From: Methylophaga frappieri
GTDB lineage: Bacteria > Pseudomonadota > Gammaproteobacteria > Nitrosococcales > Methylophagaceae
Assembly (NCBI RefSeq): GCF_000260965.1
Contig: NC_017856.1
Span: 1,410,001 to 1,442,000 of the forward strand
Direction: 5' to 3'
Length of the DNA: 32,000 nt
Shown here: piece after piece, positions 12,227-31,294 of the stretch
Numbering within the stretch: the first letter of the stretch is position 1
Layout of the letters: every line of letters starts with the position of its first letter
Translations under genes and position numbers: made by a program
The notes under the pieces: generated by a model
What the model was told of the DNA's origin: nothing
Databases searched by the model: none
The model's input: only the letters and a program-made list of their open reading frames with translations

Positions 12227-13045
12227 CTACTTTTTGCCGGGCTTGCTACCCCGAAACAATGGCTCGTGCACCGACTCACGAGAAAATCGCCAACAAGCGA
12301 CCATAACGGCAACAATAGAAAAAACGATGATGACCATCAAATCCGTTGTCACCGAAAAATCCGCCTGGCCGCTTTGGCTAGCATGTTTAAGTAAGTCGAC
12401 GCCGTAACTAAACGGGTTGACCAACACGACATAGCGCAACAAATCCGGCAATTGTGTCACTGGATATAAGGCACCACTGAGGAAAAAAACCGGAAAAATG
12501 ACGAAGTTCATGATCACGGCAAAGTTATCCAGCGTATGCGACCAGACCGCTATCAAGGCGCCCATTGACGCGCACAATACGGCGGTAAGCGCTGCTGGGG
12601 CAAGTAACATCAGAGCGAACTGCCAGTCGAGCAACCCAATCAACACCAAAATCAGCAATAACAATATCGCTTGAACCATGGCGATAATCACCGCGGCAAT
12701 CAACTTGGCAACGACTATCCAGCCATGTGCGATAGGCGCGATCATCATCATGCGCATAACACCAAACTCTTTGTCATAAACCAACGTTAACGCCGATAAC
12801 AACGCGGCAAATAACAAAGTCATAGCGACCACACCGGGCACCAGAAACTGTAGATACTGAGATTGCTGCTCAATAGCCAGCATACTGCCAACGCCAGATC
12901 CGATAACTAAAAGCCAAATTAATGGCCGTACCATGGCACTCAGCAAACGGCCACGCTGCCGGAACGTTTTGTTGAGTTCACGGCGCGTCACTGCTTTAAC
13001 GGCTAGCCAACTCACAGGCTCATCCCTTGTTGTGTTACGGTCCAA
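12227..13045 (-). CDS. ABC-2-type transporter permease
   Basis: 272 aa with about six hydrophobic helices. Overlaps the end of the upstream ATPase gene by 34 nt. Confidence 0.85.
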   Translation of the reverse strand: MDRNTTRDEPVSWLAVKAVTRRELNKTFRQRGRLLSAMVRPLIWLLVIGSGVGSMLAIEQQSQYLQFLVPGVVAMTLLFAALLSALTLVYDKEFGVMRMMMIAPIAHGWIVVAKLIAAVIIAMVQAILLLLILVLIGLLDWQFALMLLAPAALTAVLCASMGALIAVWSHTLDNFAVIMNFVIFPVFFLSGALYPVTQLPDLLRYVVLVNPFSYGVDLLKHASQSGQADFSVTTDLMVIIVFSIVAVMVACWRFSRESVHEPLFRGSKPGKK

Positions 13046-13938
13046 AGATATACATCATTCAGGTTGGGCCGACGCCATTGCATCGAAATGATCTTATTCC
13101 CTAATGCACGTTGTAACGCAGAAAAATCGGTCTCTGGTTCTGTTACGCGAAAGGTCAAATGTTGATCTTCAACCAGCGGCATGCCAAATTGTGATGCGAG
13201 TTGTTGGCTGACTTGTTCTGGCTCAGCACAATTCAACTCCAAGATATACGAGGCAAGATCACGCATCAGACGCGCAGGTTTACCACCCTTCTGCAGTTTC
13301 CCTTGTTGCATGAAGTCAACCGAATCACAGGCTTCAGCTTCTTCCAGATAATGTGTCGTCAAAAAAACCGTCATCCCCTGTTCACGGCGTAACTGCTCAA
13401 TAAAGCGCCATATTGCGCGGCGGCTAGGCACATCCAGGCCAATAGTTGGTTCGTCCAGAAACAGCACTTTGGGTCGGTGAAGCACGCCACGGGCAATATC
13501 TACTGCACGCCGTTGTCCGCCTGACAAGGCTGCCAGCTTTATATGACGCTTTTTATCGAGATTAAAAATCGACAGCAAAGTATCGATTCGTTCATTGGTT
13601 TCAGCAGGCAACATGCCATACAGTGCACCGGCAAATTGCAGATTTTCATCAACCGTCATCATGCGATCTAATGCCGAATCTTGAAAGACCAGGCCAACCA
13701 GACTGCGGATATAAACCGGATTCTCCGTTAAAGCGTGGCCACTAATTAAGGCTTCACCCGAAGAGGGACTTGTCATCGTGGTCAGCATGTGGATGGTGGT
13801 GCTTTTACCTGCCCCGTTCGGCCCCAGCAAACCAAAACATTGACCAGCCTTAATTTGCAAATCAAGGTCATTGACCGCAGCAGTCTCACCAAAGTACTTA
13901 GTCAGACCGTGACAAGCTATCGCGTAATCAGAGTCCAC
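13012..13938 (-). CDS. ABC transporter ATP-binding protein (ABC-2/DrrA-like)
   Basis: Walker [10 protein letters not shown], signature LSGGQRR, Walker B VLFLDEPT. Its start overlaps the pqqE stop by 11 nt. Confidence 0.9.
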
Positions 13939-15121
13939 TGATTGCTTTAGAGTTTTTAGGGTTACGGAAAACTAATGGTTTCGCATCACCTGCTGATTTA
14001 TTCGCCTCATCACGTCCGCGCTGAATGGCTTCCGAAATCAGATGATGGTGCGGTGATTTATCACAGACCGGGTCAGCCGCAGCAGGATCACCAGTCAACA
14101 TGTAGGCCTGACAACGACAACCACCAAAATCCTTGGTTTTCTCACTGCAACTGCGGCAGGGCTCCTTCATCCATTCATAACCACGGAAGCGGTTAAAGTC
14201 CGTTGACCCATTCCAGATTTCATCAATGGAATAATCGCGAATATTGGGTAAGGCCATACCCGGTAATTGTCTTGCCGCATGACAAGGTAATGCCGTACCG
14301 TCTGGTGTAATGGTCAAAAACACATTACCCCAGCCATTCATGCAAGCTTTTGGCCTTACCTCATAATAATCCGGCACCACGTAGTAAATTTTCATGTTGC
14401 CTTTTTGTTTTTCCTGGTATTCATGAGCAATGGCTTCAGCGCGTTCCAGCTGTTCTTTCATTGGTAACAACTGATCACGATTATGCATTGCCCAACCGTA
14501 AAACTGAGTCGTTGCCAGCTCGACGTAGTCGGCATCTAAATTGATCGCCAAGTCCAGTATTTCGTCGATTTGATCAATGTTCTGACGATGGGTGACAAAG
14601 CACAAGACCATCGGATAACCCGCCGCTTTAACGGCTCTGGCCATATCAATCTTGTGCTGAAAAGCATTGGTACCAGCGATCAGGTTGTTCAAATCCTCGG
14701 AGCTCGCCTGAAAGCTCACTTGGATATGATCCAGACCGGCCTCTTTAAATGCTTTGGCGCGATCTTCATTCAAGCCAATACCTGAAGTAATCAGGTTAGT
14801 GTAAAACCCCATATTACGGGCTTCAGTAATCAATTCGATAATGTCGGGGCGAGCAAGCGGCTCACCACCAGACAAGCCAAGCTGAGTGGCACCCATTGCC
14901 CGCGCCTGCTTGAATACATCAACCCATTGCGCCGTGGTTAATTCACTTTTGATCTTGGCAAAGTCCATCGGGTTTGAACAATAAGGACATTGCAACGGAC
15001 AGGCATAGGTCAATTCCGCCAACAACCATAGCGGCTGTCGGATATTACTCCGATCCGTCATGCTTAATGAACCGGCAATACTGCCGGGCGCTTTATTTTG
15101 TTCTGATCCAGTCGTTGTCAT
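13928..15121 (-). CDS. pqqE: PQQ biosynthesis radical-SAM protein PqqE
   Basis: [21 protein letters not shown] (CxxxCxxC) plus a C-terminal SPASM cysteine cluster. ATG at 15121 is preceded by GGAGGA. The ORF-track start at 15172 is probably too long. Confidence 0.95.
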
Positions 15122-15377
15122 GGGCTTCCTCCAAAAACTGATAAACATCATCGTCCAGATCTGCGCCATCAAAGGCGGCTTTTAGATCCGCTATCAGTTC
15201 ACCAACTGTTAGTTCTCTCTCACTGATCCGCTTGATAATCTCCGCAGCGGCCGGGTTTAACTTCACCATGCCTTCTGGATAAAGCAGTACATGGCAATTT
15301 TGTGCTGGTTCCCATTGAAATCGGTAACCTAACGCTAAATCCAATACCGTATTATCGTTAAACTTGTGTTCGCTCAT
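15093..15377 (-). CDS. pqqD: PQQ biosynthesis peptide chaperone PqqD
   Basis: [52 protein letters not shown] overlap with the pqqC stop at 15374-15377. Confidence 0.9.
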
Positions 15378-16105
15378 TTTTCTACATCCATACAATAAGG
15401 TGGTCGTTCTTCAATATACGCCATCCACATTGCATCCAGCATCGTCCATAAAATATCGAGTTTGAATTGCAACAGATCCAGAGCGCGCTGCTGCTTCTCA
15501 CGGGTATCGCAATAATCCAACGTAATTTGTAAGCCATGTTCAACATCACGGCGCGCTTCGCTTAACCGCTTTCTGAAATAGCGGTAGCCTTTTTCGTCAA
15601 TCCACGGATAAAGCGATGGCCAGTTATCGAGTCGGGCCTTATGAATTTTCGGTGCAAATAATTCCGTCAATGAAGAACCTGCGGCTTCTTGCCAATTGGC
15701 TCGCCGGGCAAAATTAACATAGGCATCGATTGCAAATCTTACGCCGGGTAGTACATGTTGGTAAGACGTTAACTCTTCGCGGGTCAGGCCAACGGCCTCA
15801 CCGAGTTGCAGCCAGGCTTCAATACCGCCTTCTTCCCCGTCATAGCCATCATGGTCGAGAATACGTTGCACCCAATGTTTCCGAACTTCGGCATCTTCAC
15901 AGTTCGCCATGATTGCCGCATCTTTAACCGGGATGGCAGTTTGATAATAAAACCGGTTCGCCACCCAGCCCTGCACTTGTTTTTGCGTTAACTTGCCATC
16001 ATGCATCAACTTATGAAAAGGATGATTGATGTGATAGTACTGTTCTTTGTCGCGCAACTTCTGCTCGAATACTTCACGTGACCATAGCGTATTATCAGTT
16101 GTCAT
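15374..16105 (-). CDS. pqqC: Pyrroloquinoline-quinone synthase PqqC
   Basis: 243 aa. [33 protein letters not shown] is typical of PqqC. Confidence 0.95.
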
Positions 16106-16116
16106 CGGCCTTCCTC

Positions 16117-17031
16117 TTAATATTCCAAGTCCATACCATCATAAGCAAGCTCAATACCCGCCTCATTAAGAATCTTTCTCTCGGGAGAGTCTTCGTTCAA
16201 GATTGGGTTGGTGTTGTTTATGTGAATCAATATCTTGCGTGGTTTTTCCAAGCTATTAAGAATACTGACCGAACCACCTGCTTCGGATTGATTGATATGA
16301 CCCATTTCGGTAGCACGTTTATCGCTGATACCTTCTCGCGACATCTCATCATCAGTCCAGACTGTGCCATCCATTAAAATGCAGTCGGCATCGCGCATGT
16401 AATTTAGAACATGCTCTTCGACGATCCCTAAACCCGGGGCATAAAATACATTTTTCCCGGAACGGGTATCGTGAATACGAATGCCAATATTATCGCCGGG
16501 CACCGTGTTATGCCGATGCGGTGAGTAAGGCGGTGCTTCACTTTTCAACGGCACCGCCGTAAATTCCAGACCCAACGCTGCGGGCATGGTAAAAGGCTGT
16601 TGATCGGTTTTGATTTCATGCCAATTGACGCCACGGAAATGGCCCAAAATATTGAAGATTGGCAAGCCCGTGGTCATATCTTCATGTACCGCTTCAGTGC
16701 AATAAATATCCCAAGGCTGATTATGTTCACGCAGCGTGAACAGACCTGTGGTGTGATCTATCTGCGCATCTGTTAATAAAATCGCTTTAATGGCAGTATC
16801 ACGAACCTGTCTTGCCGGCTGGATAGCCGGAAAAGCATCCAGTTGCTTTTTGATATCGGGAGAAGCATTAAACAAAATCCAGTCTTCACCATTCGCACTC
16901 ACCGCAATCGATGACTGGGTTCTGGGTAAGGCATTTACGGTGCCTTCTCTAACGCCTTTACAGTTATTGCAGTTACAGTTCCACTGGGGAAAACCACCAC
17001 CTGCACCCGATCCCAAAACGTGAATGAACAT
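16117..17031 (-). CDS. pqqB: PQQ biosynthesis protein PqqB (metallo-beta-lactamase fold)
   Basis: 304 aa. [24 protein letters not shown] is the PqqB N-terminal signature. Confidence 0.95.
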
Positions 17032-17113
17032 AACTTCTTCCCAAAATTCGATAAATAAATGGCAATTGACGCAATTTGATTAAACACATTAATTGTCATT
17101 TATTAACCGGAAA

Positions 17114-17140
17114 TGTCCGGGACAGGAGGCGTCCCGGACA
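17114..17140 (-). terminator. Stable hairpin between pqqA and pqqB (partial terminator or RNA stabiliser)
   Basis: Perfect 10-bp stem tgtccgggac (17114-17123) / gtcccggaca (17131-17140) with a 7-nt loop. Only a short U-tract (UUU) follows on the minus strand. Confidence 0.45.
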
Positions 17141-17156
17141 CCTTTCCACAACGCTA

Positions 17157-17228
17157 TTAACGGTTGTTGATGTACATTGTTACTTCAAAACCGAAACGCA
17201 TATCTGAATATTCTGGTTTAGTCCACAT
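17157..17228 (-). CDS. pqqA: PQQ precursor peptide PqqA (23 aa)
   Basis: Too short for the ORF track. Reverse-strand ATG TGG ACT AAA CCA ... = [23 protein letters not shown] with the conserved E-x3-Y (EVTMY) cross-link residues. GAGGAA lies 7 nt upstream. Sits immediately upstream of pqqB. Confidence 0.9.
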
Positions 17229-17473: not shown

Positions 17474-19252
17474 TTACAGGCTGAACACACTCAATACACC
17501 ACCCAGGTTTGTCCAGCTAGACAGTGAACGGTAGGCACCAACCGCACCCAAACCATCTGAATCATTTTCCAGACTTGGGATAGCCATACCGATACCAGCC
17601 CAACCACCGACACCTGACAAGATAGAAATGTACTGCTTACCATCATGCTTGTAAGTGTTCACGTTACCGATGATCCCTGATGGCGTTTTAAACCGCCACA
17701 GTTCACGGCCTGATTGTGCATCTACCGCTTTCAAATGACCTTCAAGCGTACCGTAAAAAACAACATCCGAAGCGGTCGCTAACGCACCAGACCAGACCGA
17801 GAAACGTTCCGGGTTAGACCAAACGATCTTACCTTCGCGTGCATCCCAGGCAATGAAGTTACCCAAGTGTGTACCACCTGGTGCTGGATACATTGCTAAT
17901 GTCGCGCCCACATACGGCTGACCAGCGACGTATTCCACTTCAAATGGCTCGTAGTCCATGCACACATGGTTTGTTGGCACATAGAACAGGCCTGTACGCG
18001 GTGAGTATGCCGCTGGCTGTTGGTCTTTTGTGCCCAATGCTGCCGGACAAATACCTGTCGTATTCACATCCTCACCATTTCGGGCAGTGGAGTACTTAGC
18101 AACACGGTCATGACGACCTGTTTCCAAGCTGACACCATTTGACCAGTTCACCGCTGGGTCGTATTTTTCTGCAACCAGCAATTCACCATTCACCCGGTCT
18201 AACGTATAGGCAAAACCATTGCGGTCAAAGTGAACGACTGTTTTACGCATTTTGCCGTTGACTTTTTGGTCAACCAAAATGTTTTCGTTAACACCATCAT
18301 AGTCCCACTCATCATATGGTGTCATTTGGTAGACCCATTTCGCCATACCAGTATCTAAATCACGTCCCCACATGGACATTGTCCATTTATTATCACCAGG
18401 ACGTTGTACTGGGTTCCAGGTTGATGGGTTACCATTACCATAATAGAACTGATTCAAGTCCGGGTCATATGAATACCAACCCCAAGTGGTACCGCCACCA
18501 ATTTTCCATTGATCGCCTTGCCAGCTTTTCAGGGATGAGTCCTTACCAACTGGTTTCAGCATAGATAATGTATTTTCAGGATCCACCAGCATTTCGTCAT
18601 CAGGACCGGTGCTGTAGGCTTTGTAAACAACGTTACCATCTAAGTCATAAGCTTGGACATAACCACGAACACCAAACTCACCCCCTGAAATACCGACAAT
18701 GATCTTGTCATCAAAAACGTGGGCAGCAGCAGTGCTGGTCGCACCTACTTTAGGATCATCACGTTTATCCGACCAAACCTGTTCACCGGTCTCCATATCC
18801 AATGCCACTAACGTGGTATCAGCCTGGTTCAGGAAGATTTTACCGTCAGCATAAGACAGACCACGGTTCACCGTGTCACAACACATGACTGGGACGGTTT
18901 CATCGTAGTTTTGGCTTGGCTCATATTTCCATTTGATTGCCCCATCATTGTTCAAATCAAGTGCAAAAACAATGTTTGGAAACGGGGTATGAACATACAT
19001 CGTACCGTCCATAACCAATGCGTTACCCTCATGACCACGGAGAACGCCTGTGGAGAAGGACCAAGCCATATTCAGATCTTTGACATTTTCTTTATTAATT
19101 TGCGTTAGCGTACTGTAACGATGATTAGCATAGTTACCAGCCGGCATAACCCAATTGTTTTCGTTTTTTTGCATGTCCAGCAGTTCATCAGCGGCTACCA
19201 GCCCTGGTGCTGCCAGTCCCATCATGGCAATTGATAATGTTTTCAGCTTCAT
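17474..19252 (-). CDS. xoxF: PQQ-dependent methanol/ethanol-family dehydrogenase, lanthanide-type (XoxF/PedH-like)
   Basis: Vicinal disulfide VMCCDT. Catalytic region [12 protein letters not shown] (codons at 18293-18307 read TGG GAC TAT GAT GGT), with the extra Asp two residues after the catalytic Asp. ATG at 19252 (AGAGGA upstream) gives signal peptide [21 protein letters not shown]. Assignment to xoxF rather than a pedH/exaF clade is not resolved. Confidence 0.85.
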
Positions 19253-19446
19253 AAAGTTATCCTCTATATTGTTATTCATGAAAGCAATCGCTGCTGCATT
19301 TTCATGAGAGTATGACTTTATGCCGGTTATACCTATAAATCATTAGGAGTTAGTCCTGCAATAAATGGGAAAAACTCCCGAACAAGACGGAGAGCAAGAG
19401 CTAGCAATGTCTTTGTTATTTTCGCGCTTCGGGAAAAATGTCCCGC

Positions 19447-20085
19447 TTAATTTTGATCAATGACGTTGTACTTAATAGCTAATCGCACTAATTCAACCGA
19501 GGAATTAAACCCAAGCTTGTGTTTGAGCACCGTTTGGTAATTAGCAACGGTTTTTTGGCCTAGACTGAGACGGTTCGCAATTTCATCCAGAGGCAAGCCC
19601 TCCGCCAGTAAACGAAATACCTCAAATTCACGCACGCTAAGGCGTTGAGTGGGATCATCACTACCAGAAACGCTTTGAATCGCAATACGTTGGGCCATTT
19701 CTGCACTAAGGTACGTTTTACCCGTTTCCATAATATGGCGTATCGCAGTTAACAATTCACTGACCTCGCCAGATTTACATAAATAGCCAATCGCACCCGC
19801 ACTCATTGCTTGAACGGCAAGTGCCACATTTTCATGCATGGAGAACATAATAACTTTTGCCTGCGTATAGCGTGTTCGAATGCGCCTGAGAGCTTCCAAC
19901 CCACCAATTCCAGGCATCGTCATATCCATGACCAATATGTCTGGGATCAGCTCAGTATAAAGTTGGTATGCTTGCTCTCCACTGCTGGCCTCACCAATAA
20001 CACGCATATCTGGATTACGCTCAAGCATTCTTGCCAGCCCTGAACGAACAACTTCATGATCATCTGCTAACAATACATTTATCAT
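19447..20085 (-). CDS. NarL/LuxR-family response regulator
   Basis: MINVLLADDHEVVRSG ... DILVMDMTMPG. LuxR HTH LSVREFEVFRLLAEGLPLDEIANRLSLGQKTVANYQTVLKHKL. Confidence 0.9.
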   Translation of the reverse strand: MINVLLADDHEVVRSGLARMLERNPDMRVIGEASSGEQAYQLYTELIPDILVMDMTMPGIGGLEALRRIRTRYTQAKVIMFSMHENVALAVQAMSAGAIGYLCKSGEVSELLTAIRHIMETGKTYLSAEMAQRIAIQSVSGSDDPTQRLSVREFEVFRLLAEGLPLDEIANRLSLGQKTVANYQTVLKHKLGFNSSVELVRLAIKYNVIDQN

Positions 20086-20094
20086 AATGATTAC

Positions 20095-21444
20095 TTATCC
20101 CAGTGCGTTTGGAATACGTAGTGACACATGCATTCCTTCTTCATAAGCAGCACTCACAGAAAACTCACCTTTCAAAGTTTCAACCCTTTCTCGCATTGCT
20201 AATAAGCCAATTCCGGGGGTTATAGCATCTAAATCACAGCCTTTACCATTGTCTGAAATTTCAATTGACAATGTTTCACCTTGCAAAGAGAGTGTAATCC
20301 AGACTAAGACAGCAGGGCCAGCATGACGACTAATATTCGTCAGACATTCCTGTACAACACGGTAAGCCGTGAGCTTTATTGTATCGTCAAGATGATTCAG
20401 CTCTTCTTCAGCTAGTAAAATTAATTGATGATGAGTATGGCGTTGTTGCCAATCTGTCGTTAATTCTTTCAGGCTTGCTGTCAGGCCAACACTATCTAAT
20501 GAGGGCGGCCGCAATCGTTGTAACATCGAGCGAACAATGTCTGTTAATTCGCGATTAATTGTCTCAATAGATTGCGCCGCTTGTTTGGCCTCTTTTAAAT
20601 CACTAGCCCCTCTGATTGCCGCAGTATCAAACCGAATGGCAGTCAAATGCTGACCTATCTCATCATGCAGTTCAGCGGCGAGACGCTTACGCTCATCTTC
20701 GTGCAGACTCAATAGTTTGTCGTTGAGTTGACGCAATTCCTGATTGTAATTTTGGAGGCGTCGCCCGATATCACCAATTTGATCGCGCAATCCAAACAGG
20801 CTGTATGGTTGCTCTTTTCGTTTCGACTTTTTACCTGAGTCTGATAATTGGCGATATACCCTGAGAAGATTTTCTGTTGGCTTTAAAATAAGCGAAGCAA
20901 CCATGGCAATGAGAAAACTTACTAATGCATAAATCAACATGAGGGGCAAAATCATGCGAGTGCTGGTTTGCCATATTTCTGTCACCTCACTACTTAGATT
21001 CGGTTTAATTCTTACTTGCCCAATCAGCTGGCCGCCAAGGAAAACAGGCTTATATATTGTGTCCTCATGCAAATAGCCAGACAACAGTCTATAAAACCAT
21101 TCTGGCATCAATTTATCTGAAACGGTTTCATCAGGGTAATTGGCATCCAACAATTCACCATCGGCGCTGAGAAAAGCAATTTCAATATGTCGTAAAGCAC
21201 TCAGGCGAGATAAATCAAATAAGCGTGACAACGTCCCATTGGTCGGCATTTGTCCAAAATTACGAAAATCATTTTGCAACCGACTGGTTTGTGACTCAAT
21301 AAGATAATCAGACAAGGCGGAAGTCATGGTCAAATCAGTATGCACGCGATCTCGTAGATCTCTTAATGCTAAATATTCCGCGATAACGATACCGACGAAA
21401 AAAATAATTACCGCAATTAAATTGAACCTAAACAACAACCTCAT
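20095..21444 (-). CDS. Sensor histidine kinase (2 TM, HisKA_3, HATPase_c)
   Basis: H-box AELHDEIGQHLTAI. QECLTNISRHAG ... DNGKGC ... GIGLLAMRERV. Codon 21450 is TTG. ATG 21444 with AGGGG upstream is preferred. Confidence 0.9.
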   Translation of the reverse strand: MRLLFRFNLIAVIIFFVGIVIAEYLALRDLRDRVHTDLTMTSALSDYLIESQTSRLQNDFRNFGQMPTNGTLSRLFDLSRLSALRHIEIAFLSADGELLDANYPDETVSDKLMPEWFYRLLSGYLHEDTIYKPVFLGGQLIGQVRIKPNLSSEVTEIWQTSTRMILPLMLIYALVSFLIAMVASLILKPTENLLRVYRQLSDSGKKSKRKEQPYSLFGLRDQIGDIGRRLQNYNQELRQLNDKLLSLHEDERKRLAAELHDEIGQHLTAIRFDTAAIRGASDLKEAKQAAQSIETINRELTDIVRSMLQRLRPPSLDSVGLTASLKELTTDWQQRHTHHQLILLAEEELNHLDDTIKLTAYRVVQECLTNISRHAGPAVLVWITLSLQGETLSIEISDNGKGCDLDAITPGIGLLAMRERVETLKGEFSVSAAYEEGMHVSLRIPNALG

Positions 21445-21524
21445 AGCCAACCCCTGATACTGCTTCTTATAAATGCAATTACAGCAATAATCATGATACC
21501 CAGCAGGGGCGGACAGCCATCTAT

Positions 21525-22169
21525 TTAAGCATCAAGCAAACCGCTCCGTATTGCCAATCTTGCCAGCTCTGCAGCATTCGACACATTCAATTTTTGCTTG
21601 ATATTAGTGTGATGCGTACCCACCGTTTTTGGGCTCAGATTAAGAATATCGGCAATGTCGTTAACCGTTTTCCCTTCCGCTAATAGACGAAACACTTCAA
21701 ATTCACGCTGACTCAGCACATCCAATGGACTTTCCGAGCCGGTCAGTTTCTGCATGGCAATCTGCTGGGCAATTTCCGGAGCGATACACGTTCTACCCTG
21801 CGCCACAATATCCACGGCTTTAAGCATTTCTTCCGGCGCGCTGCGTTTGGGAATAAAACCCAAAGCACCCGCCTGCATAGCCCGGGTGGTAAAAACACTG
21901 TCTTCATGAACGCTCAATACCAGAATCTTGGCATTCGGTTCCCGAGCCACAATACGCTCAATGGCACCAACGCCACCTATTCCAGGCATCGAAATATCCA
22001 TCACCACTACATCCGGATGATATTTATTAAAATCTTGTACGGCCTGTTCACCCGACCCGGATTCTGCAACCACCTCAAACTTGTCACCATCTTCCAGCAG
22101 CCTACGGAAGCCTGCTCTGACCAATTCGTGATCGTCGACCAGTAATACTTTAATTTTACTCAATGCCAT
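21525..22169 (-). CDS. NarL/LuxR-family response regulator
   Basis: KVLLVDDHELVRAG ... DVVVMDISMPG. LSQREFEVFRLLAEGKTVNDIADILNLSPKTVGTHHTNIKQKL. ATG 22169 has better SD spacing than 22175. Overlaps the end of the kinase gene. Confidence 0.9.
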   Translation of the reverse strand: MALSKIKVLLVDDHELVRAGFRRLLEDGDKFEVVAESGSGEQAVQDFNKYHPDVVVMDISMPGIGGVGAIERIVAREPNAKILVLSVHEDSVFTTRAMQAGALGFIPKRSAPEEMLKAVDIVAQGRTCIAPEIAQQIAMQKLTGSESPLDVLSQREFEVFRLLAEGKTVNDIADILNLSPKTVGTHHTNIKQKLNVSNAAELARLAIRSGLLDA

Positions 22170-23877
22170 GTTCATTTTCCGTTTGCAGCGGTATTGTCAC
22201 TTTGAGCTTCACACCCTGCCCTAATTGACTCTCTAACGTAAAGCTACCTCCCATACTTTGCGCTCTTTCCCGCATACCCAGCAAACCAAAATCAACATCT
22301 GAATGAAAATCATGTACTTCCATGCCTTTACCATCATCACAAATGCGGATTTCCAGATACGGCTCTTCGGCATCCTGCTCACGGGTAACACTCACTTCAA
22401 TACGACTGGCCTGAGCATGTCTGACCGCATTGGTAATTGCCTCCTGCACAACACGAAACACGGTCATATTACAGGCTTCGTTCAGGCCGGATACGGCATC
22501 ATCAATTGTCATATCAAACTGGATTTCCGGCTGCCGCTCACGCCAATTTTTGATCGCTTCTTCCAGCGTCGCTTTCAGCCCCAGATCATCCAGCGGACTT
22601 GGCCGCAAACGGGTAATCATATTATGCACAACATCATAGATATGACTGGCGGTATCAATGATCGCCTGAGCACTTTTGAATAACTTGGGCTCGGTTTCCA
22701 AAGTGCGGTTTCGAATCAAAACCGCATCCGTTTTGATCGCCGTCAAACATTGACCCAGTTCATCGTGAAGTTCTCGCGCCAAATGTCGGCGCTCGGCTTC
22801 TTGTGCCTGCTCCAGATGCTTGGTCAATAGCCGGTTTTCATGCAATTGCGCTTTGGCTTTTTCTGCCTGCTTGTGCTGAGTGATATCTCTTAGAGTACAA
22901 ATGACCCCAATAATGCAACCATCGTTTTCCTGTAACGGCACGGTAGACATCAAAAGTGAGACAACCTCACCATTTGGTGTGACCAAACTGGTTTGCAGGT
23001 TTTCCACCGCCTGGCAGCCCTCAATGATACGAATAATCTGGCCACGATTTTCCTTTAATCCCAGCGCCGTTAACGATTCTCCCATCAACACCGGTGTTTG
23101 GTTCGCAAACAGCCTTTCAGCGGTGGCGTTACAGAAAGTAATGTAACCCGCATGATCCAAAGATAAAATGGCATCTCCAGACTGTTTTACCAGCGCTGCC
23201 AACCGGCGGTTTTCGACACTGCTAAGTTGTAACGCTTCGCCCATCCGGTTGAATGTCTGACTGATCTGATCCATCTCAGCCAACGAAAAATGTGGCAGGC
23301 GTAAATGCAAATCCCCGCGCTCCATACCCGACAGGGCATCCAGTAATCGCTGCAGGGGACGCATCAACCAGCCGACTCCCCAGTAAATCAACACCACGAC
23401 AAAGACAAAAATGACCAGTCCCAGCGCCATAATGTCTCGTATGTCCCGCCAGCGTTCGGCAATCTCCTGAATCGGCGCAGCATAGATAACCATGTGACCA
23501 TCGCCAAAGCGGCGCGACAAGGGACTGATTTCCGGAAACAATATTCTGACAAACCATCCCGGCGGCTGCTCTTTAATCCTGTTCTCAGGCTGGCCTTCAA
23601 ACATCAGTCCCTGCTCATCAAACATCAAAATATGCAGACTGCGCATCTCACTGAGCGCAATAACCAGCTCTTTCATATGCTCGCTGACGGGTCTATCACG
23701 ATTCAGCCGCGCTCCAGCCAGCGTCACCGTAATAATATGTGCGGTTGCATCCATGGTGTCTTGGACTTCAGACTTGACCGACTGACGCGCGTTGGAAATC
23801 AGCACCCAGGCACTTGCTAACACCGACAAAAACAGCAGCAGCGCAAAAAAAAGATTAACTTTTAACTTTAAACTCAT
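22156..23877 (-). CDS. Sensor histidine kinase (2 TM + periplasmic domain, HAMP, PAS, HisKA_3, HATPase_c)
   Basis: 573 aa. H-box RELHDELGQCLTAI. QEAITNAVRHAQAS ... DDGKGM ... FGLLGMRERA. PAS-like segment between HAMP and H-box (SGDAILSLDHAGYITFCNATAERLF...). ATGA overlap with the soxZ-like stop. Confidence 0.9.
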   Translation of the reverse strand: MSLKLKVNLFFALLLFLSVLASAWVLISNARQSVKSEVQDTMDATAHIITVTLAGARLNRDRPVSEHMKELVIALSEMRSLHILMFDEQGLMFEGQPENRIKEQPPGWFVRILFPEISPLSRRFGDGHMVIYAAPIQEIAERWRDIRDIMALGLVIFVFVVVLIYWGVGWLMRPLQRLLDALSGMERGDLHLRLPHFSLAEMDQISQTFNRMGEALQLSSVENRRLAALVKQSGDAILSLDHAGYITFCNATAERLFANQTPVLMGESLTALGLKENRGQIIRIIEGCQAVENLQTSLVTPNGEVVSLLMSTVPLQENDGCIIGVICTLRDITQHKQAEKAKAQLHENRLLTKHLEQAQEAERRHLARELHDELGQCLTAIKTDAVLIRNRTLETEPKLFKSAQAIIDTASHIYDVVHNMITRLRPSPLDDLGLKATLEEAIKNWRERQPEIQFDMTIDDAVSGLNEACNMTVFRVVQEAITNAVRHAQASRIEVSVTREQDAEEPYLEIRICDDGKGMEVHDFHSDVDFGLLGMRERAQSMGGSFTLESQLGQGVKLKVTIPLQTENEHGIE

Positions 23878-24191
23878 TGTACTGTGGTTTCAGCCGCCCC
23901 TTTGCCACCGGTGTTATCCACCCAGCGCAATTTGATTTTATCGCCAACGACGCCTCCCTGCAGCTGAAAGGCGAAGAAAGGATTACGTGAGGTTGCTGTG
24001 CCACATTTCACCGTCAGCACTTCAATCTCATTGCGCCAGAGTCGAATATCCTGAATAAACTTAGCCGGAATCAACTCTCCTTCCGTGTTTTCACCACGGC
24101 CCGTGTGCATGGGATGTGCTAATAAAATCCGAATCAGCGTGTCGCCATCATGCAGTTTGGCACGAATACGATCTTTGCCTTTCACCGCCAT
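23874..24191 (-). CDS. soxZ: SoxZ-like sulfur-carrier subunit
   Basis: IRAKLHDGDTLIRILLAHPMHTGRG ... PAKFIQDIRLWRNEIEVLTVKCGTATSRNPFFAFQL is the SoxZ fold pattern. TGATG overlap with soxY-like at 24191. Confidence 0.75.
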   Translation of the reverse strand: MAVKGKDRIRAKLHDGDTLIRILLAHPMHTGRGENTEGELIPAKFIQDIRLWRNEIEVLTVKCGTATSRNPFFAFQLQGGVVGDKIKLRWVDNTGGKGAAETTVQ

Positions 24192-24679
24192 CAGGCACAT
24201 CCTCCAATGTCAATCTCGACAAACCTTTTCGCAATGTATAACTGATTTTCTGCCCGGATCACGGCAATAATGTCTGCATCCTCAGCCACCTTAATCAGCG
24301 TTTTGAATGGCAACATAACCGCGCTATGCAGGGTCATACTCATCGCCAGCGGCGATGGATTTTTATCCACCAGCAAGGCAAGATGTTCAATATTTTTCAG
24401 CGTGGTGTTGACTTCAACCGGCACCGTCGCGCCATTCACGGCATAAGTCGGCGGCGCACCAACGGTGAAGCTGACACTGTCATCATCAATCGTTTCTGCT
24501 TGGCCAAGTAACGCTTTCAATGCATCTTCCAGCGTCTTCGCCGCAAAGGCTTCTCGCGGCCAATGTGCCAATACTTGCTTTGGCAGTAGCAGGCCACTAG
24601 CAGCGACACAGGCCAGTGTCGCTGCCGATACACCTTGCTTCAACCAATAACGGCGAGTTTTATCAAAATGGCTAGTCAT
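24191..24679 (-). CDS. soxY: SoxY-like sulfur-carrier subunit with Tat signal
   Basis: Twin-arginine motif TRRYWLKQG. C-terminus ...EIDIGGCA* places the carrier Cys near the C-terminus, whereas canonical SoxY ends GGCGG. ATGA overlap with the bepA-like stop. Confidence 0.75.
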   Translation of the reverse strand: MTSHFDKTRRYWLKQGVSAATLACVAASGLLLPKQVLAHWPREAFAAKTLEDALKALLGQAETIDDDSVSFTVGAPPTYAVNGATVPVEVNTTLKNIEHLALLVDKNPSPLAMSMTLHSAVMLPFKTLIKVAEDADIIAVIRAENQLYIAKRFVEIDIGGCA

Positions 24680-26124
24680 CGTTGTCTTTCCATCAGCGCC
24701 AGTTGGTCTTCCACTTGTTTAAGGCGTGAATTAATTCGTGCCTGTTGATAAGCATCGCCTTTGGCATGGTCCGCTGCAATACGCAACTGGTCTGCCGCCG
24801 CGGCGATTTGTCCAGACTGATAATACGCCTCTGCCAGCCAAAAATGTGACTGACTTCGGTTGCCCATTTGCTCATGTGCTTTGCCAAGTAAGCGATACAC
24901 TTCTTGTGAGTTTTCGCCAATATCGATCAGGCGTTGCAATAATTTCGCGGCTTGACTGGGCTGGCCTGTGCGTAACTGCAAATCAACTTGCTCCAATGTT
25001 AAGGCACGATCATCAGGATAAAGCCGCTGATTATCCTGATAAATTGCCAACGCCCTGCTGGTGTTTCCCACGGCAATTTCCAAATCGGCAAGGGTCAACT
25101 GATAACTGAGTCTATCGCCATCTTTTTCTACCAGCGGCATTAACGCTTTTCTCGCTTCGCTTGTTTGATTGGCTTTTAACAAGGCCCGTGCATAACCGTA
25201 TTGCAATACTTCCTGATCATGATCGTCTGAATTTTCTCGCCGTTTTTTTCGATATTCCTCCAGCGTGGCCTGCAAATCATCACTGGTCATCACCCGTAAT
25301 TTTTCGCGCATCAGATAGAACTGTTTGGTGTCGCGCTGATTGCTGACAGACGGATAATCTTCTGCTCGGGCACGCGTTTCAGCGATACGGGACCCCGTAA
25401 TCGGGTGAGTCCGCAAAAACTCCGGCACATGGGCGCCGCCATAAAAGCGACCCGCTACCTGTAATCGCTCAAAGAACCGCGGCATTGCATAAGGGTCAAA
25501 ACCCGCACTGACCAAGGTCTGCATGCCCAGACTATCCGCCTCCGCTTCGTGTGCCCGCGTGTAATTCAACTGCATTTGTACCGCGCCGCCCTGCACTGCC
25601 ATCATCGCGGCACTGCCGGCACTGGGATCAGCGATACCAAGCAGCGCAGCAGCGATCATAGCGGCTGTTAGCGGCACACTTAACCGCTCACTTTTTTCAT
25701 AACCACGCAAAATATGACGCTGGGTAACGTGAGCAATCTCATGCGCAATAACCGACGCCATTTCATCTTCGGTTTCGGCGGTCATCATTAACCCACTATG
25801 TACCCCCACAAATCCACCTGGTGCGGCAAACGCATTGATTGACGGATCTTCGACCATAAAAAAAGTATACGGTAAGGCTGGCTGATCACTGGCTGCCGCG
25901 AGCCGATAACCCAGACTGCGCACATAATCCTGCACTTCCGGATCGGCAACAAAGTCGACCTGTCGCTGCAATTGCCAATAAAAACTCTGGCCAACCTGAT
26001 ACTCCTCAATTGGAGACACCAACTCGCCGGCACTGTCCCCCATTTCAGGCAACTGAATATTCAGATTGGCCTGGGTGCCTGGTATGACCAGAAACAAAAT
26101 CAAACTGATAATGTGTTTTTTCAT
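24676..26124 (-). CDS. bepA: Periplasmic M48 zinc metalloprotease with C-terminal TPR domain (BepA/YfgC-like)
   Basis: 482 aa. Signal peptide MKKHIISLILFLVIPGTQA. LPEMGDSAG ... INAFAAPGGFVGVHSGL ... HEIAHVTQRH (HExxH) ... EAEADSLG, collinear with E. coli BepA. TPR-like C-terminal half. Confidence 0.85.
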   Translation of the reverse strand: MKKHIISLILFLVIPGTQANLNIQLPEMGDSAGELVSPIEEYQVGQSFYWQLQRQVDFVADPEVQDYVRSLGYRLAAASDQPALPYTFFMVEDPSINAFAAPGGFVGVHSGLMMTAETEDEMASVIAHEIAHVTQRHILRGYEKSERLSVPLTAAMIAAALLGIADPSAGSAAMMAVQGGAVQMQLNYTRAHEAEADSLGMQTLVSAGFDPYAMPRFFERLQVAGRFYGGAHVPEFLRTHPITGSRIAETRARAEDYPSVSNQRDTKQFYLMREKLRVMTSDDLQATLEEYRKKRRENSDDHDQEVLQYGYARALLKANQTSEARKALMPLVEKDGDRLSYQLTLADLEIAVGNTSRALAIYQDNQRLYPDDRALTLEQVDLQLRTGQPSQAAKLLQRLIDIGENSQEVYRLLGKAHEQMGNRSQSHFWLAEAYYQSGQIAAAADQLRIAADHAKGDAYQQARINSRLKQVEDQLALMERQR

Positions 26125-26237: not shown

Positions 26238-26474
26238 ATGTCAGATTTTGCTGCAGAAATTGATACCTCCGGGCTCAATTGCCCCCTACCGGTTCTCAAG
26301 GCCCGTCAAGCATTAGCGGAACTGACAACAGGCCAACAGTTACATCTAATCGCCACGGATAAAGGTGCAGCTAAAGATATTCCTGCGTTTTGCAAAATGA
26401 CCGGAAATGCGCTGATTGACAGCAGTGAAACCGACGACAAACTGCACTTTATCATCGAAAAAGGCGGCATCTGA
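26238..26474 (+). CDS. TusA/SirA-family sulfurtransferase
   Basis: 78 aa from ATG 26238 (GGAGA at 26226-30). Active-site motif LNCPLPVLKA (CPxP). Confidence 0.8.
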   Translation: MSDFAAEIDTSGLNCPLPVLKARQALAELTTGQQLHLIATDKGAAKDIPAFCKMTGNALIDSSETDDKLHFIIEKGGI

Positions 26475-26938
26475 TGACTAAAAAAATGGCGATCATTGCC
26501 AGCAAAGGCACGCTGGATGGGGCTTACCCCCCATTTTTACTAGCATCAACCGCGGCAGCACTTGGTTTCGAAGCCAAAATCTTTTTTACCTTTTACGGCC
26601 TACAACTTCTTAAAAAAGACTTAAGCCCAAAAGTCTCCCCACTAGGCAATCCTGCCATGCCAATGCCTGTGCCAATGCCAAATTTATTGCAGATTTTGCC
26701 GGGGGTCGAAGCCTTTGCCAGTTGGATGATGCGGCGGAAATTAAAACAAAAAGGCGTCGCCAGCCTGACCGAACTACGCACTATCTGTTTGGACTCTAAT
26801 GTCGAGCTGATTGCCTGCCAAATGACGGTCGATCTGTTTGACTTCAAAAACCACGATTTTATTGATGGTATCAGCCATGGCGGCGCCGCAACCTTTCTGG
26901 CTTTTGCCAGCGAGGCCGATATTACCCTTTATATCTGA
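26474..26938 (+). CDS. DsrE/DsrF/DsrH-like family protein
   Basis: 154 aa. MAIIASKGTLDGAYPPFLLASTAAALGFEAKIFFTFYGL ... ELIACQMT (candidate active Cys). TGATG coupling with the tusA-like gene. Confidence 0.65.
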   Translation: MTKKMAIIASKGTLDGAYPPFLLASTAAALGFEAKIFFTFYGLQLLKKDLSPKVSPLGNPAMPMPVPMPNLLQILPGVEAFASWMMRRKLKQKGVASLTELRTICLDSNVELIACQMTVDLFDFKNHDFIDGISHGGAATFLAFASEADITLYI

Positions 26939-27642: not shown

Positions 27643-27821
27643 TTTAACCTTTTGTTTTATATAGGGTGAATTTGCAACACACTGATTTTTAAGTCACTTA
27701 GTATAACGTCATATCACACTAAGTCACTACTAATCATCGTGTTAGTGTCCCAAAATTGTCCCAAATCCAAACCGGCGAATGAAGCACATGAAAACTGGTT
27801 AAAAGTAAAGCTGCGGAAAAA

Positions 27822-28283
27822 TTAATTGTGTTTTTTTAACTCCGACTGCAGTTCGTTGAGTTGAGCTTGAAACTTGTCTCTGCGCTCGCGGAACTCTTTC
27901 ACTCTTTTTAGTAAGTAGGGTGATGGCTCTTTTGCAATGCTGTTCTCAAGAGCAACTATTTCGACCTCGTATTTACTAATTTGCTTTTGTGAGAATGCTA
28001 TTTCAGTTTTTAAATCACGAACTGCCCCTACCTCAGGGTTAAGTACAGACATAACTGGCCCCAAAGAGATAACAACTACAAATAAGATCACTAAATAACT
28101 GAAAGCAGATAAACCACCACCTGTCGTATACATAGTGGTTCCACAGTACGGGCATATATGCTCTATTTTCTTTTTCGTGAAGAATGAGCCTGTGTGCCAA
28201 AGCCTCGGTGTTGCTCGCTTTCCACAGTTCTTACACTCAACTCTTTGATCTGACATATTCAAAGTCCTTTTTTGATAGTTCAT
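27822..28283 (-). CDS. Hypothetical zinc-ribbon / single-TM / coiled-coil protein
   Basis: 153 aa (or 144 aa from M10). CKNCG...x22...CPYCG cysteine pairs. Hydrophobic segment LSAFSYLVILFVVVISLGPVMSVL. C-terminal heptad-rich, charged 70 aa. AGGA 5 nt upstream of ATG 28283. Confidence 0.6.
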   Translation of the reverse strand: MNYQKRTLNMSDQRVECKNCGKRATPRLWHTGSFFTKKKIEHICPYCGTTMYTTGGGLSAFSYLVILFVVVISLGPVMSVLNPEVGAVRDLKTEIAFSQKQISKYEVEIVALENSIAKEPSPYLLKRVKEFRERRDKFQAQLNELQSELKKHN

Positions 28284-28334
28284 CCATGTCCTGACCTAAA
28301 GTCAGTTCGAAATAGTCATTATTTCCGTCATAAA

Positions 28335-29831: not shown

Positions 29832-29954
29832 GATTATAAAAATCCTTTCTGTCAAGAAAATTAGCCAAATTTCTTAACTTTCGTAAATTCCTGTCTCCCA
29901 ATGCTAAGCGTTCATATCATCAACGGCAACTTTACAACACGTTGAGATAAGTCC

Positions 29955-30152: not shown

Positions 30153-30191
30153 GTCTTTTTTGAGCATTCTTTACTTAGTGACGCTCACGTT

Positions 30192-31279: not shown

Positions 31280-31294
31280 TAGTTCGCTAAATTA

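Follow-up and report, generated by a model that had tools for sequence, protein, structure and literature searches.

A conserved gene unit beside xoxF and pqq in Methylophaga frappieri joins an orphan SoxYZ pair to BepA-like protease and MoxY-type sensor kinase genes

The canonical SoxYZ pair, as found in Paracoccus pantotrophus and Chlorobium (families TIGR04488 and TIGR04490), consists of SoxZ and a SoxY with a twin-arginine motif, a Cys at the tip of a GG-C arm and the C-terminus GGCGG, and the system to which it belongs also contains SoxAX and SoxB. Another family, TIGR04557, holds fused proteins of about 226 aa with both a SoxY-like and a SoxZ-like module, encoded near genes of PQQ-dependent dehydrogenases; its function is unknown. 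In Methylophaga, soxY, soxZ and soxH have been reported from six of six genomes and soxCD from three, while soxA, soxB and soxX were found in none of them, M. frappieri JAM7 included (Kroeber and Schaefer, 2019; PMC6548844, Table S8). M. frappieri, M. nitratireducenticrescens and M. lonarensis are the species reported to lack soxCD (PMC6548844). We describe here how, in these marine methanol users, an orphan sulfur-carrier pair is joined to a methylotrophy regulator operon, in a layout that recurs in about 60 species.

The window, by which we mean the whole stretch of 32,000 nt that was analysed, covers positions 1,410,001-1,442,000 of M. frappieri NC_017856.1 (GCF_000260965.1). Five genes follow each other on its minus strand in the order M48 protease (bepA-like), soxY, soxZ, kinase HK1 and regulator RR1, and a second kinase-regulator pair, HK2-RR2, lies 74 nt past RR1 (Table 1). 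The translation of xoxF has a WDYDG (DYD) motif and vicinal Cys residues (CC), and a terminator-like hairpin with a T-run is found past this gene at 17404-17417. The pqq genes were named by homology to Pfam-annotated genes of two other loci (L001 and L003); the ABC transporter pair scores 218 bits against TIGR03864 and 158 bits against TIGR03861, both under cutoff. Divergent from the five genes are tusA and dsrE2. For tusA a start at 26172 is possible, however 26238 is favoured because the proteins of relatives have 77-78 aa; the product reaches 56 bits against the NCBIfam TusA model (cutoff 78).

Table 1. Features of the locus (positions within the window).
Feature	Position	Strand	Evidence or remark
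tusA-like sulfurtransferase gene	26238..26474	+	Pfam TusA 77.9 bits; divergent from operon
dsrE2, cytoplasmic sulfur-relay carrier	26474..26938	+	NCBIfam NF047629 DsrE2 246.9 bits (cutoff 210); Pfam DrsE_2 165 bits
bepA-like periplasmic M48 metalloprotease, C-terminal TPR; operon gene 1	24676..26124	-	Pfam M48 126 bits, plus TPR
soxY, Tat-signal carrier protein ending GGCA (Cys161)	24191..24679	-	PF13501 84 bits
soxZ	23874..24191	-	PF08770 90 bits; TIGR04490 94.3 bits (cutoff 76)
HK1, MoxY/MxaY-type sensor kinase	22156..23877	-	Pfam domains HAMP, PAS, HisKA_3, HATPase
RR1, NarL/LuxR-type response regulator	21525..22169	-	Response_reg and GerE
HK2, second kinase	20095-21450	-	HisKA_3/HATPase
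RR2, second regulator	19447-20085	-	Response_reg/GerE
xoxF-type PQQ methanol/ethanol dehydrogenase	17474..19279	-	TIGR03075 725.8 bits
pqqA, pqqB, pqqC, pqqD, pqqE and PedABC-like ABC transporter pair	12227..17228	-	homology
pqqA	17157-17228	-	peptide of 23 aa

Judged by their sequences, the two carrier proteins are a diverged true SoxYZ. Both fall into the canonical families and SoxZ passes its equivalog cutoff, whereas SoxY remains below its own (104.5 bits against TIGR04488, cutoff 125) and, in contrast to the canonical protein, ends in GGCA or GGCG. Cys161 lines up with the carrier Cys in SoxY proteins of known structure, and a twin-arginine motif (TRRYWLK) is present. By analogy with canonical SoxYZ, SoxY probably carries SoxZ, which has a clade-specific extra Cys, to the periplasm. 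A preliminary description of this DNA had named the family 'quinoprotein dehydrogenase-associated SoxYZ-like carrier' (TIGR04557). Its genomic setting is similar, but SoxY and SoxZ score only 54.8 and 44.1 bits (cutoff 140), the true SoxY and SoxZ models score higher and the proteins are unfused, which rules out membership. In M. thiooxydans, fused soxYZ genes are found apart from this pair, in other parts of the genome (PMC6548844). In agreement with that description, SoxA, SoxX, SoxB, SoxC and SoxD are not encoded by any window ORF of at least 90 aa. It had also pointed out that a full sox cluster elsewhere, lacking a SoxYZ of its own, would make the pair simply canonical; the published absence of soxA, soxB and soxX from six Methylophaga genomes speaks against this, and an orphan pair is supported.

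By alignment and domain content, the first gene codes for a full-length BepA-type protein. The alignment with E. coli BepA (6sar, E 3.7e-70) spans the whole length, and the protein shares with BepA (YfgC), the beta-barrel assembly-enhancing protease, the M48 domain with HExxH, the C-terminal TPR and an N-terminal signal peptide, which would be of the Sec type. HExxH and the downstream E..AD motif are kept in the M48 proteins of 67 of 67 relatives. Unlike E. coli BepA, the protein stays below the NCBIfam equivalog cutoff (396.7 against 570 bits), as do its homologs in all clades at a similar level (361-413 bits), and its gene is translationally coupled to soxYZ.

All four junctions of the unit overlap, as already described. 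Stop and start codons share ATGA between the M48 gene and soxY (24679-24676, minus strand) and between soxZ and HK1 (23877-23874). The soxY stop TGA (24193-24191) and the soxZ ATG (24191-24189) have nt 24191 in common, and a GGAGG precedes this ATG by 9 nt. An alternative in-frame soxZ ATG at 24200 was rejected, since GGAGG is too near and the -1 ATG is the start in 62 of 67 relatives. The HK1 stop TAA (22158-22156) is overlapped by RR1, which starts with the ATG at 22169 (overlap of 14 nt) or with the one at 22175 (20 nt). We compared the locus across 67 species-representative genomes with this type of SoxY. The TGATG junction of soxY and soxZ (-1 nt) is kept in 62 of the 67, and the soxZ/HK1 overlap (-4 nt) in 55 of 59. 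The five-gene order is found in 59 Methylophagaceae genomes, in the arrangement tusA-dsrE2<>M48-soxY-soxZ-HK1-RR1; seven genomes are without kinase and regulator, and one contig ends too early. Because the same order recurs in 59 of 67 species genomes, the arrangement is not due to chance. No convincing internal terminator was found within the five genes, and this, together with the overlaps, suggests that they are co-expressed, presumably from a single transcript that would start in the tusA/bepA divergent region, with coupled translation. Gene order and overlaps in relatives thus support a conserved, translationally coupled unit adjoining xoxF/pqq, in line with the preliminary description, and the linkage to the kinase, which it had proposed to survey in relatives, is conserved in 59 genomes.

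The seven exceptions are informative about the parts of this unit. In these genomes soxZ is followed by msrA/PCMT-rhodanese-TolC, exactly the block from HK1 to the ABC transporter is missing at the locus, and SoxY ends in GGA, GGD or GGN without the carrier Cys. SoxY Cys and the HK1/PQQ block are thus both present in 59 genomes and both absent in seven, with no exceptions, and this perfect co-occurrence suggests that the Cys is linked to the PQQ/kinase block. The Cys-less clade keeps soxYZ coupled to the protease gene, and its SoxYZ is under purifying selection (dN/dS 0.086 for SoxY and 0.092 for SoxZ in an unsaturated pair, L071-L072). In neighbor-joining trees built from between one and three proteins, with the root placed by outgroups of about 35% identity, this clade is nested inside kinase-bearing clades (bootstrap 100/100 for M48 alone, 95/100 for the concatenation). 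The joint loss happened only once in evolution (n=1), and a general shift in lifestyle might account for it.

A likely origin of the pair is indicated by more distant loci. The outgroup L079 has tusA-dsrE2<>M48-soxX-soxY-soxZ-soxA-soxB, Sedimenticola has M48-soxY-soxZ, and tusA is the divergent neighbour in nearly all relatives as well as in L079. The pair is therefore probably derived from a genuine soxXYZAB operon. On the other side, what comes after HK1-RR1 is in every case either pqq or HK2-RR2-xoxF-pqq; HK2-RR2 occurs in about half of the relatives and is missing where RR1 leads straight to pqq, about half of the loci lack an adjacent xoxF, and the pqq and ABC transporter genes are present or absent together with HK1-RR1. 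The protease and SoxYZ had been described as hard-wired to the kinase. As a description of one single invention this does not hold: protease-SoxYZ exists kinase-free in a nested sublineage, the outgroup has soxXYZAB at this place, and the kinase pair moves with pqq.

HK1 consists of a transmembrane segment, a LapD/MoxY periplasmic domain, a second transmembrane segment, HAMP, PAS, HisKA_3 and HATPase. Taken by themselves, its first 159 aa reach 25.9 bits with LapD_MoxY_N (cutoff 25), a model that also matches the paralogous kinase HK3, and the domain aligns weakly to the periplasmic domain of a LapD homologue (4u64). It is strongly conserved (motifs ALSExRSLHIL, PPxWF and RFGxGHMVIY) and contains no Cys in 60 of 60 sequences. 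This excludes that a thiol or persulfide is relayed covalently to the kinase. RR1 proteins across Methylophagaceae are 79-94% identical to the window protein.

Taken as a whole, these data may be best explained by a composite operon in which SoxYZ has two roles and the Cys arm is tied to PQQ/XoxF-containing cells, an explanation to which we give about an even chance. The operon would be specific to Methylophagaceae and assembled from three older pieces. A BepA-type M48/TPR protease gene, divergent from the cytoplasmic sulfur-relay genes tusA-dsrE2, would be one. soxY and soxZ would be the sole survivors of a soxXYZAB set directly behind it, where soxX, soxA and soxB were lost and soxY came to overlap the protease stop codon. 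HK1 and the LuxR-type RR1, heading (HK2-RR2-xoxF)-pqqABCDE-ABC transporter, would be the third. One role would be independent of the Cys and paired with the BepA-like protein, and would persist in the sublineage without kinase and pqq. The other would depend on the Cys and be retained only together with the PQQ/kinase block; here the Cys arm may bind sulfane or thiol species in the periplasm, an activity that would matter only in PQQ/XoxF-containing cells. HK1 would sit in the inner membrane with its Cys-free periplasmic domain, and RR1, by its position, may control the pqq/xoxF genes immediately downstream. SoxYZ would no longer take part in thiosulfate oxidation in Methylophagaceae. That it is an ordinary carrier of that pathway, with SoxAX, SoxB and SoxCD encoded elsewhere in the genome, is hardly credible: the SoxZ score, the GGC arm and Tat signal of SoxY and the soxCD genes of three Methylophaga species would fit, but soxA, soxB and soxX are reported absent in six of six genomes and soxCD in M. 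frappieri itself, SoxY misses its cutoff and the GGCGG end, and M. thiooxydans does not oxidise thiosulfate to sulfate (PMC6548844).

Direct signalling from SoxYZ to the kinase is plausible, and the tight, conserved soxZ/kinase overlap fits direct functional pairing and history equally well. SoxYZ could be a periplasmic co-sensor for HK1, its Cys arm becoming loaded with a sulfane or thiol adduct, derived for instance from sulfide or polysulfide that oxidation of DMS or methanethiol yields, and its loaded or unloaded form binding the LapD/MoxY-type domain non-covalently to set RR1 activity and the choice between pqq/xoxF and mxaF. Conservation of the ATGA coupling, the perfect association of Cys and HK1 and the conserved periplasmic domain point this way, and LapD, the characterised member of the fold, binds a periplasmic protein (PMC3032553). 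During growth of M. thiooxydans on DMS compared to methanol, soxY and soxZ are up 2.1-2.5x, the two xoxF genes of the cluster 4x and 18x, and pqqBDE 2.7-3.8x, and mxaFI is down 15-19x (PMC6548844, Table S6 and text), a contrast that has other explanations too, such as the absence of methanol. Nevertheless, we regard the co-sensor as fairly unlikely. SoxYZ is maintained by selection beside the BepA-like gene without a kinase, HK1-RR1 moves with pqq instead, the MoxY-type paralogues HK2 and HK3 have no SoxYZ partner, the Cys-free domain leaves only non-covalent contact, and in place of the Trp with which LapD binds LapG, HK1 has His and HK3 has Ser. MxaY of M. buryatense is a histidine kinase acting upstream of mxaB, and the part of that report available to us mentions no carrier protein (PMC5018670). 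With background divergence controlled, SoxYZ distances also correlate better with M48 (partial r 0.59) than with the HK1 periplasmic domain (0.23), although such mirror-tree values are weak evidence. The same values favour a purely historical adjacency, where SoxYZ is an accessory of the BepA-like protease/chaperone or acts independently in the periplasm, the PQQ block behind it is read through, and one sublineage lost the Cys with a change of its sulfur lifestyle and not through the loss of pqq or the kinase. Coupling of M48 with soxYZ predates the kinase link and has a broader distribution (L079, the Sedimenticola locus L086 and the Cys-less clade), the Cys-less genes remain under purifying selection, and the co-loss is one event. 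However, the 4-nt overlap has been kept in 55 of 59 species although the proteins diverged to 60-80% identity, the Cys/kinase association has no exceptions and the region is co-induced on DMS, and we consider mere history unlikely.

By analogy with the context-defined 'quinoprotein relay' SoxYZ-like carriers, SoxY-Cys might instead help in maturation or redox control of periplasmic quinoproteins, for example by acting on the disulfide between the vicinal Cys residues of XoxF/MxaF or on a thiol adduct related to PQQ, while the BepA-like protein would serve as chaperone. In favour, the Cys is retained only alongside the pqq block, XoxF here has the adjacent CC pair, and TIGR04557 is defined by its association with quinoprotein dehydrogenases. 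We know of no biochemical precedent for such a helper, the pair lies outside TIGR04557 and xoxF is often not adjacent, which makes this quite improbable. soxH-like genes, universal in Methylophaga, would fit it, but the fused SoxYZ of M. thiooxydans could fill the role (PMC6548844).

Compared with known sensor systems, HK1 is, by domains and placement, a MoxY/MxaY-type sensor that always travels with pqq genes. MxaY/MxaB of Methylotuvimicrobium buryatense and MoxY/MoxX of Paracoccus denitrificans, which we group with PedS2/PedR2 and ExaDE of Pseudomonas as the closest regulators, likewise have a membrane kinase with a LapD/MoxY-type periplasmic domain (PMC5018670). They also share with HK1-RR1 the HisKA_3 core, the adjacent LuxR-type regulator and the site beside PQQ dehydrogenase or pqq genes. 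HK1 differs from them by an extra cytoplasmic PAS domain and by a start that overlaps soxZ, and the soxYZ genes in turn differ from canonical ones by their overlaps with the protease gene before them and the kinase gene after them, and by a related sublineage without the SoxY Cys. A kinase and a LuxR-type regulator adjoin soxYZ in two Chromatiales loci as well (L081, L084). There the kinases, which we take to resemble the sulfur-oxyanion sensors ThsS/ThsR and TtrS/TtrR, precede the sox genes and carry a binding-protein-like periplasmic Phosphonate-bd domain and HisKA, unrelated to the sensor domain of HK1.

The soxYZ genes of M. frappieri lie between the gene of a BepA-like M48 protease and those of a histidine kinase (HK1) and its response regulator (RR1), followed downstream by a second such pair (HK2-RR2), xoxF and the pqq genes. 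Direct reading of the minus strand bears out each of the operon junctions listed in the preliminary description (see table). A GGAGG motif stands 9 nt ahead of the soxZ ATG; an alternative in-frame ATG farther upstream touches this motif, and its use as a start is not conserved. In a promoter and terminator scan of 17-27 kb the matches were no commoner than in shuffled sequence and cannot address internal promoters, and no convincing internal terminator was found in this region. A clear hairpin with a T-run lies behind xoxF and before pqqA. The other minus-strand terminator-like matches between the start of the bepA-like gene and xoxF are low-scoring only, two of them inside ORFs and one a hairpin in the RR2-xoxF intergenic region.

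Features of the soxYZ locus and its surroundings
Feature	Window position	Strand	Remark
Peptidase_M48 + TPR protein	within 21525-26124	minus	482 aa ORF
SoxY	within 21525-26124	minus	162 aa ORF
SoxZ	23874-24191, within 21525-26124	minus	105 aa ORF
HK1	within 21525-26124	minus	573 aa, HAMP-PAS-HisKA_3-HATPase kinase
RR1	within 21525-26124	minus	~214 aa, LuxR/NarL-type response regulator
M48/soxY junction	24679-24676	minus	ATGA
soxY/soxZ junction	24193-24189	minus	TGATG
Alternative soxZ start	24200	minus	in-frame ATG
soxZ/HK1 junction	23877-23874	minus	ATGA
HK1/RR1 overlap	ATG 22169 or ATG 22175	minus	14 nt or 20 nt
HK2-RR2	19447-21450	same as operon	downstream
XoxF-type PQQ dehydrogenase	17474-19279	same as operon	TIGR03075, 726 bits
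pqqA	17157-17228	same as operon	pqqBCDE also downstream
ABC ATPase/permease pair	12227-13938	minus	after pqqE
TusA-family gene + dsrE2	upstream of operon	divergent	
HK3/RR3	2050-4021	minus	HK3 at 2687-4021
TonB-dependent siderophore-type receptor	6883-9060	plus	between ExoI and isochorismatase gene
Low-GC stretch	27800-32000		
RepA_C plasmid-replication-type protein	30192-31067		
Unannotatable ORF	28335-29855		506 aa
Hairpin + T-run	17404-17417	minus	clear
Terminator-like match	25438-25423	minus	low-scoring, inside ORF
Terminator-like match	22971-22955	minus	low-scoring, inside ORF
Hairpin	19379-19367	minus	low-scoring, RR2-xoxF intergenic region

The ABC pair resembles the transporter of a PQQ-dependent alcohol dehydrogenase system (TIGR03864, 218 bits; TIGR03861, 158 bits; both below cutoff) and is gained or lost along with HK1-RR1-pqq. 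On the far side of the operon, the dsrE2 product passes the NCBIfam DsrE2 cutoff of 210 with 247 bits. Beyond it, the low-GC stretch (0.39-0.42, compared with about 0.47) encodes a 153-aa ORF besides the two tabulated ones and is probably an integrated mobile element; M. nitratireducenticrescens has a TonB receptor and CobN at the same position.

This organization is widespread in the group. The SoxY relatives found all belong to Methylophaga or Methylophagaceae. A SoxY-alignment scan covering one genome per bacterial species yielded 80 loci, which were annotated by BLASTP against the proteins of the window. The order tusA-dsrE2, divergent from M48-soxY-soxZ-HK1-RR1, is found in 59 of the 67 genomes with this SoxY type (about 60 species), while seven are devoid of HK1-RR1 and in one the contig is too short to tell. 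Conservation of the kinase linkage, which the preliminary description had made a touchstone of its reading, is thus evident. The ATGA overlap of soxZ with HK1 recurs in 55/59 genomes and the one-base overlap of soxY with soxZ in 62/67; since both order and overlaps are conserved, the observation generalizes well past the M. frappieri genome. Downstream of RR1 the relatives carry either HK2-RR2-xoxF(-pqq) or pqqA-E directly; pqq lies downstream in every case, xoxF in roughly half of these loci.

The two carrier proteins were compared with known SoxY and SoxZ families. SoxY scores 104.5 bits against TIGR04488 (SoxY_true_GGCGG), below the equivalog cutoff of 125, and ends in DIGGCA instead of the canonical GGCGG arm; its cysteine is present and, in alignments with SoxY proteins of solved structure, falls on their carrier cysteine, and the relatives end in GGCA, GGCG or GGCS. 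Judged from the motif, SoxY has a twin-arginine export signal (TRRYWLK, with R9 and R10 unchanged throughout alignment A1). SoxZ scores 94.3 bits against TIGR04490 (true SoxZ), above the cutoff of 76. At one position of SoxZ the window protein has Leu (IRLWRN) where all other relatives, canonical SoxZ included, have Cys (IRCWRN), and a second SoxZ cysteine (KCG) is restricted to Methylophagaceae clades; because of this Leu, the SoxZ of M. frappieri cannot make the Cys-Cys pair that is possible in others. The family of quinoprotein dehydrogenase-associated SoxYZ-like carriers named in the preliminary description does exist (TIGR04557); in it SoxY and SoxZ are fused into one polypeptide, and the cutoff is 140 bits. 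The two unfused genes of the window score 54.8 and 44.1 bits, and by score as well as by architecture they are not members. As in TIGR04557, a PQQ-dependent dehydrogenase is found in the SoxYZ neighbourhood, with xoxF 4.6 kb downstream.

The protease aligns with E. coli BepA over its whole length (6sar, E 3.7e-70). It combines an M48 domain containing HExxH with a C-terminal TPR, and HExxH together with the downstream glutamate motif is kept in 67/67 relatives. Against the NCBIfam BepA model (NF052400) it reaches 396.7 bits, below the equivalog cutoff of 570, as do its counterparts in the sister clade and in the outgroups (361-413 bits); the best 120 matches of a homologue search were all Methylophaga orthologues.

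Two outgroups bear on the origin of the arrangement. A gammaproteobacterial MAG (L079, 2361-9978) has tusA-dsrE2 divergent from M48, which is followed directly by genes in the sox-type order X-Y-Z-A-B: the place of SoxX is taken by a small c-type cytochrome, SoxY and SoxZ come next, and behind them stand a cytochrome with a SoxA/TsdA domain and, at the place of SoxB, a 5'-nucleotidase-type protein. Sedimenticola selenatireducens (L086) has M48-soxY-soxZ, and in both outgroups SoxY has the canonical GGCGG end. These gene orders suggest that the bepA-like gene may have been linked to sox operons from of old, and they make the Methylophaga soxYZ look like the remnant of a sox operon behind a BepA-type gene.

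Seven genomes of Methylophagaceae/Piscirickettsiaceae (L065-L067 and L069-L072, among them OX044353.1 and JAIBDY01; soxY at about 4680-5153 in L065) carry the unit without the kinase. Behind soxZ they have msrA and/or PCMT-rhodanese-TolC-isochorismatase...ExoI-HemL-DUF3450, genes that in the window border the pqq/ABC block on its far side, and precisely HK1-RR1-(HK2-RR2-xoxF)-pqqABCDE-ABC is missing. In the same seven genomes SoxY ends in GGAV, GGDA, GGNP, GGNA or GGDI, with Ala, Asp or Asn for the cysteine, whereas GGC[AGS] is kept in all 59 kinase-bearing genomes. The TonB-dependent receptor is also missing between ExoI and the isochorismatase gene in this clade, and DUF3450 and hemL adjoin there without HK3/RR3, a third MoxY-type pair that separates them in the window. 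The cysteine-less soxYZ genes still overlap the protease gene and are under purifying selection, not decaying: in the one unsaturated pair, L071-L072, SoxY has a dN/dS of 0.086, SoxZ of 0.092 and the M48 protein of 0.126. Measured against the M48 protein, their evolution is slightly quicker than in the cysteine-bearing clade, with distance ratios of 1.13 and 1.30 compared with 0.89 and 0.78. In neighbour-joining trees rooted on the two outgroups the seven form one clade nested inside kinase-bearing Methylophagaceae (bootstrap 100/100 with M48 columns alone, 95/100 with M48, SoxY and SoxZ). Read most simply, block and cysteine disappeared together from a single sublineage in one event, which is suggestive only, as these are distance trees with distant outgroups. 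Since SoxYZ is kept under selection without kinase and without cysteine, one of its roles seems to need no cysteine and to go with the BepA-type gene, and the cysteine seems to matter only in genomes that carry the PQQ/kinase block. The claim that protease and SoxYZ are hard-wired to the kinase is not supported: outgroups and kinase-less genomes point to an older, separable protease-SoxYZ unit.

The N-terminal 159 aa of HK1 match Pfam LapD_MoxY_N marginally (25.9 bits, cutoff 25; 23.0 bits in a full-length scan), while the paralogue HK3, whose N-terminus closely resembles that of HK1, matches it clearly (53.4 bits). Both matches together identify HK1 as a sensor of the MoxY/MxaY type, and further features of this type are found: a HisKA_3/HATPase kinase, an adjacent NarL/LuxR-type regulator and a location beside PQQ-dehydrogenase and pqq genes. 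The same family includes the kinase of the lanthanide switch in Methylotuvimicrobium buryatense (PMC5018670). The periplasmic domain of HK1 (residues about 29-145) is a well-conserved member of the LapD fold family and contains no cysteine in 60/60 sequences, which rules out that SoxY relays a thiol covalently to HK1; with neither sulfur nor disulfide transfer from SoxY, signalling would be possible via non-covalent binding only.

Methylophaga species rank among the main consumers of methanol and DMS in the sea. In M. thiooxydans, expression values for DMS and methanol, respectively, are 117 and 46 for soxY, 128 and 61 for soxZ, 2199 and 121 for xoxF MDMS009_1767, 1533 and 380 for xoxF MDMS009_2058, 170 and 64 for pqqB, 351 and 93 for pqqD, 436 and 126 for pqqE, and 823 and 12390 for mxaF (PMC6548844 Table S6). 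Both xoxF genes are reported near pqqBCDE (PMC6548844), in agreement with the cluster in locus L017; protease, kinase and regulator have no entries in the published expression tables of that study. The values fit a co-regulated region responding to growth on sulfur compounds, although the DMS and methanol conditions also differ in respects other than sulfur.

How did such an operon come about? We lean, with about even confidence, towards a composite origin: a soxXYZAB set behind the bepA-like gene would have decayed until soxYZ remained, and soxYZ would have come to adjoin the MoxY-type regulator that belongs to the PQQ block. That SoxYZ is an ordinary Sox carrier is hardly credible. As the preliminary description had stated, no ORF of the window encodes SoxA, SoxX, SoxB, SoxC or SoxD; SoxZ does score as true SoxZ, and soxY, soxZ and soxH occur in 6/6 Methylophaga genomes and soxCD in 3/6, while soxA, soxB and soxX are absent from all six, M. 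frappieri JAM7 included (PMC6548844 Table S8). The literature thus gives no sign of a full sox cluster elsewhere that this pair could serve. A role tied to the quinoprotein system, also proposed earlier, holds in part: SoxYZ is an orphan pair, and the role of its cysteine tracks the PQQ/XoxF block and not the Sox pathway, which is a correlation only. As a specific form of it, participation of SoxYZ in quinoprotein maturation seems quite improbable to us; xoxF follows in about half of the loci.

Direct co-sensing is possible, if rather unlikely. Here orphan SoxYZ would be a periplasmic sulfane-sulfur reporter for the MxaY-type kinase HK1; once loaded with a persulfide or thiol at Cys161, SoxY would bind differently, and non-covalently, to the LapD/MoxY-fold sensor domain, and in marine methylotrophs PQQ synthesis and the choice between XoxF and MxaF would then follow the status of reduced sulfur (DMS, methanethiol, sulfide). 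The expression values and the retained cysteine may be read alongside it. Background-corrected mirror-tree partial correlations, which are crude, confounded and given little weight, favour M48 as the partner of SoxYZ (0.59) over the HK1 periplasmic domain (0.23) and HAMP-PAS (0.12). HK1-RR1 always stands directly upstream of pqq/xoxF and is missing where these are missing, so by position it belongs with them. That its adjacency to SoxYZ is purely historical we judge unlikely. If co-sensing were true, a carrier protein would have been reused as a signalling ligand, and a first input would be identified for a MoxY/MxaY-family sensor. Published work on the orphan SoxYZ of Methylophaga concerns presence of the genes only, and the seven genomes that jointly lost regulator/PQQ block and carrier cysteine provide a natural experiment. 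The locus thereby bears on SoxYZ-like proteins outside the Sox pathway and on the signal sensed by MoxY/MxaY-type kinases. The composite origin would, even without a functional link, be a clear case of operon decay (soxXYZAB to soxYZ) and re-fusion with neighbours.

No account of SoxYZ arranged with BepA in this way was found in the searchable literature, and its components are of known kinds. A different manner of joining a two-component system to soxYZ is seen in two Chromatiales loci (L081:5298-10817 and L084:4036-10491), where the sensor comes first: a kinase of 733 aa, which combines PAS with a Phosphonate-bd domain in the periplasm and which we take to be ThsS/TtrS-like, and a LuxR-type regulator lie directly upstream of soxA-soxY-soxZ. 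Capture of a protease by HK1 in the manner of LapD was also considered and rejected. LapD binds a periplasmic protease via a tryptophan (W125, LapG-binding) in its GWxQ loop (PMC3032553), whereas HK1 has GHMV and HK3 GSQS at this position, with His and Ser, respectively, for Trp, so that this mechanism is not transferable. The fold family matches weakly, and PxWF, the structural motif close to the membrane, is kept in HK1.
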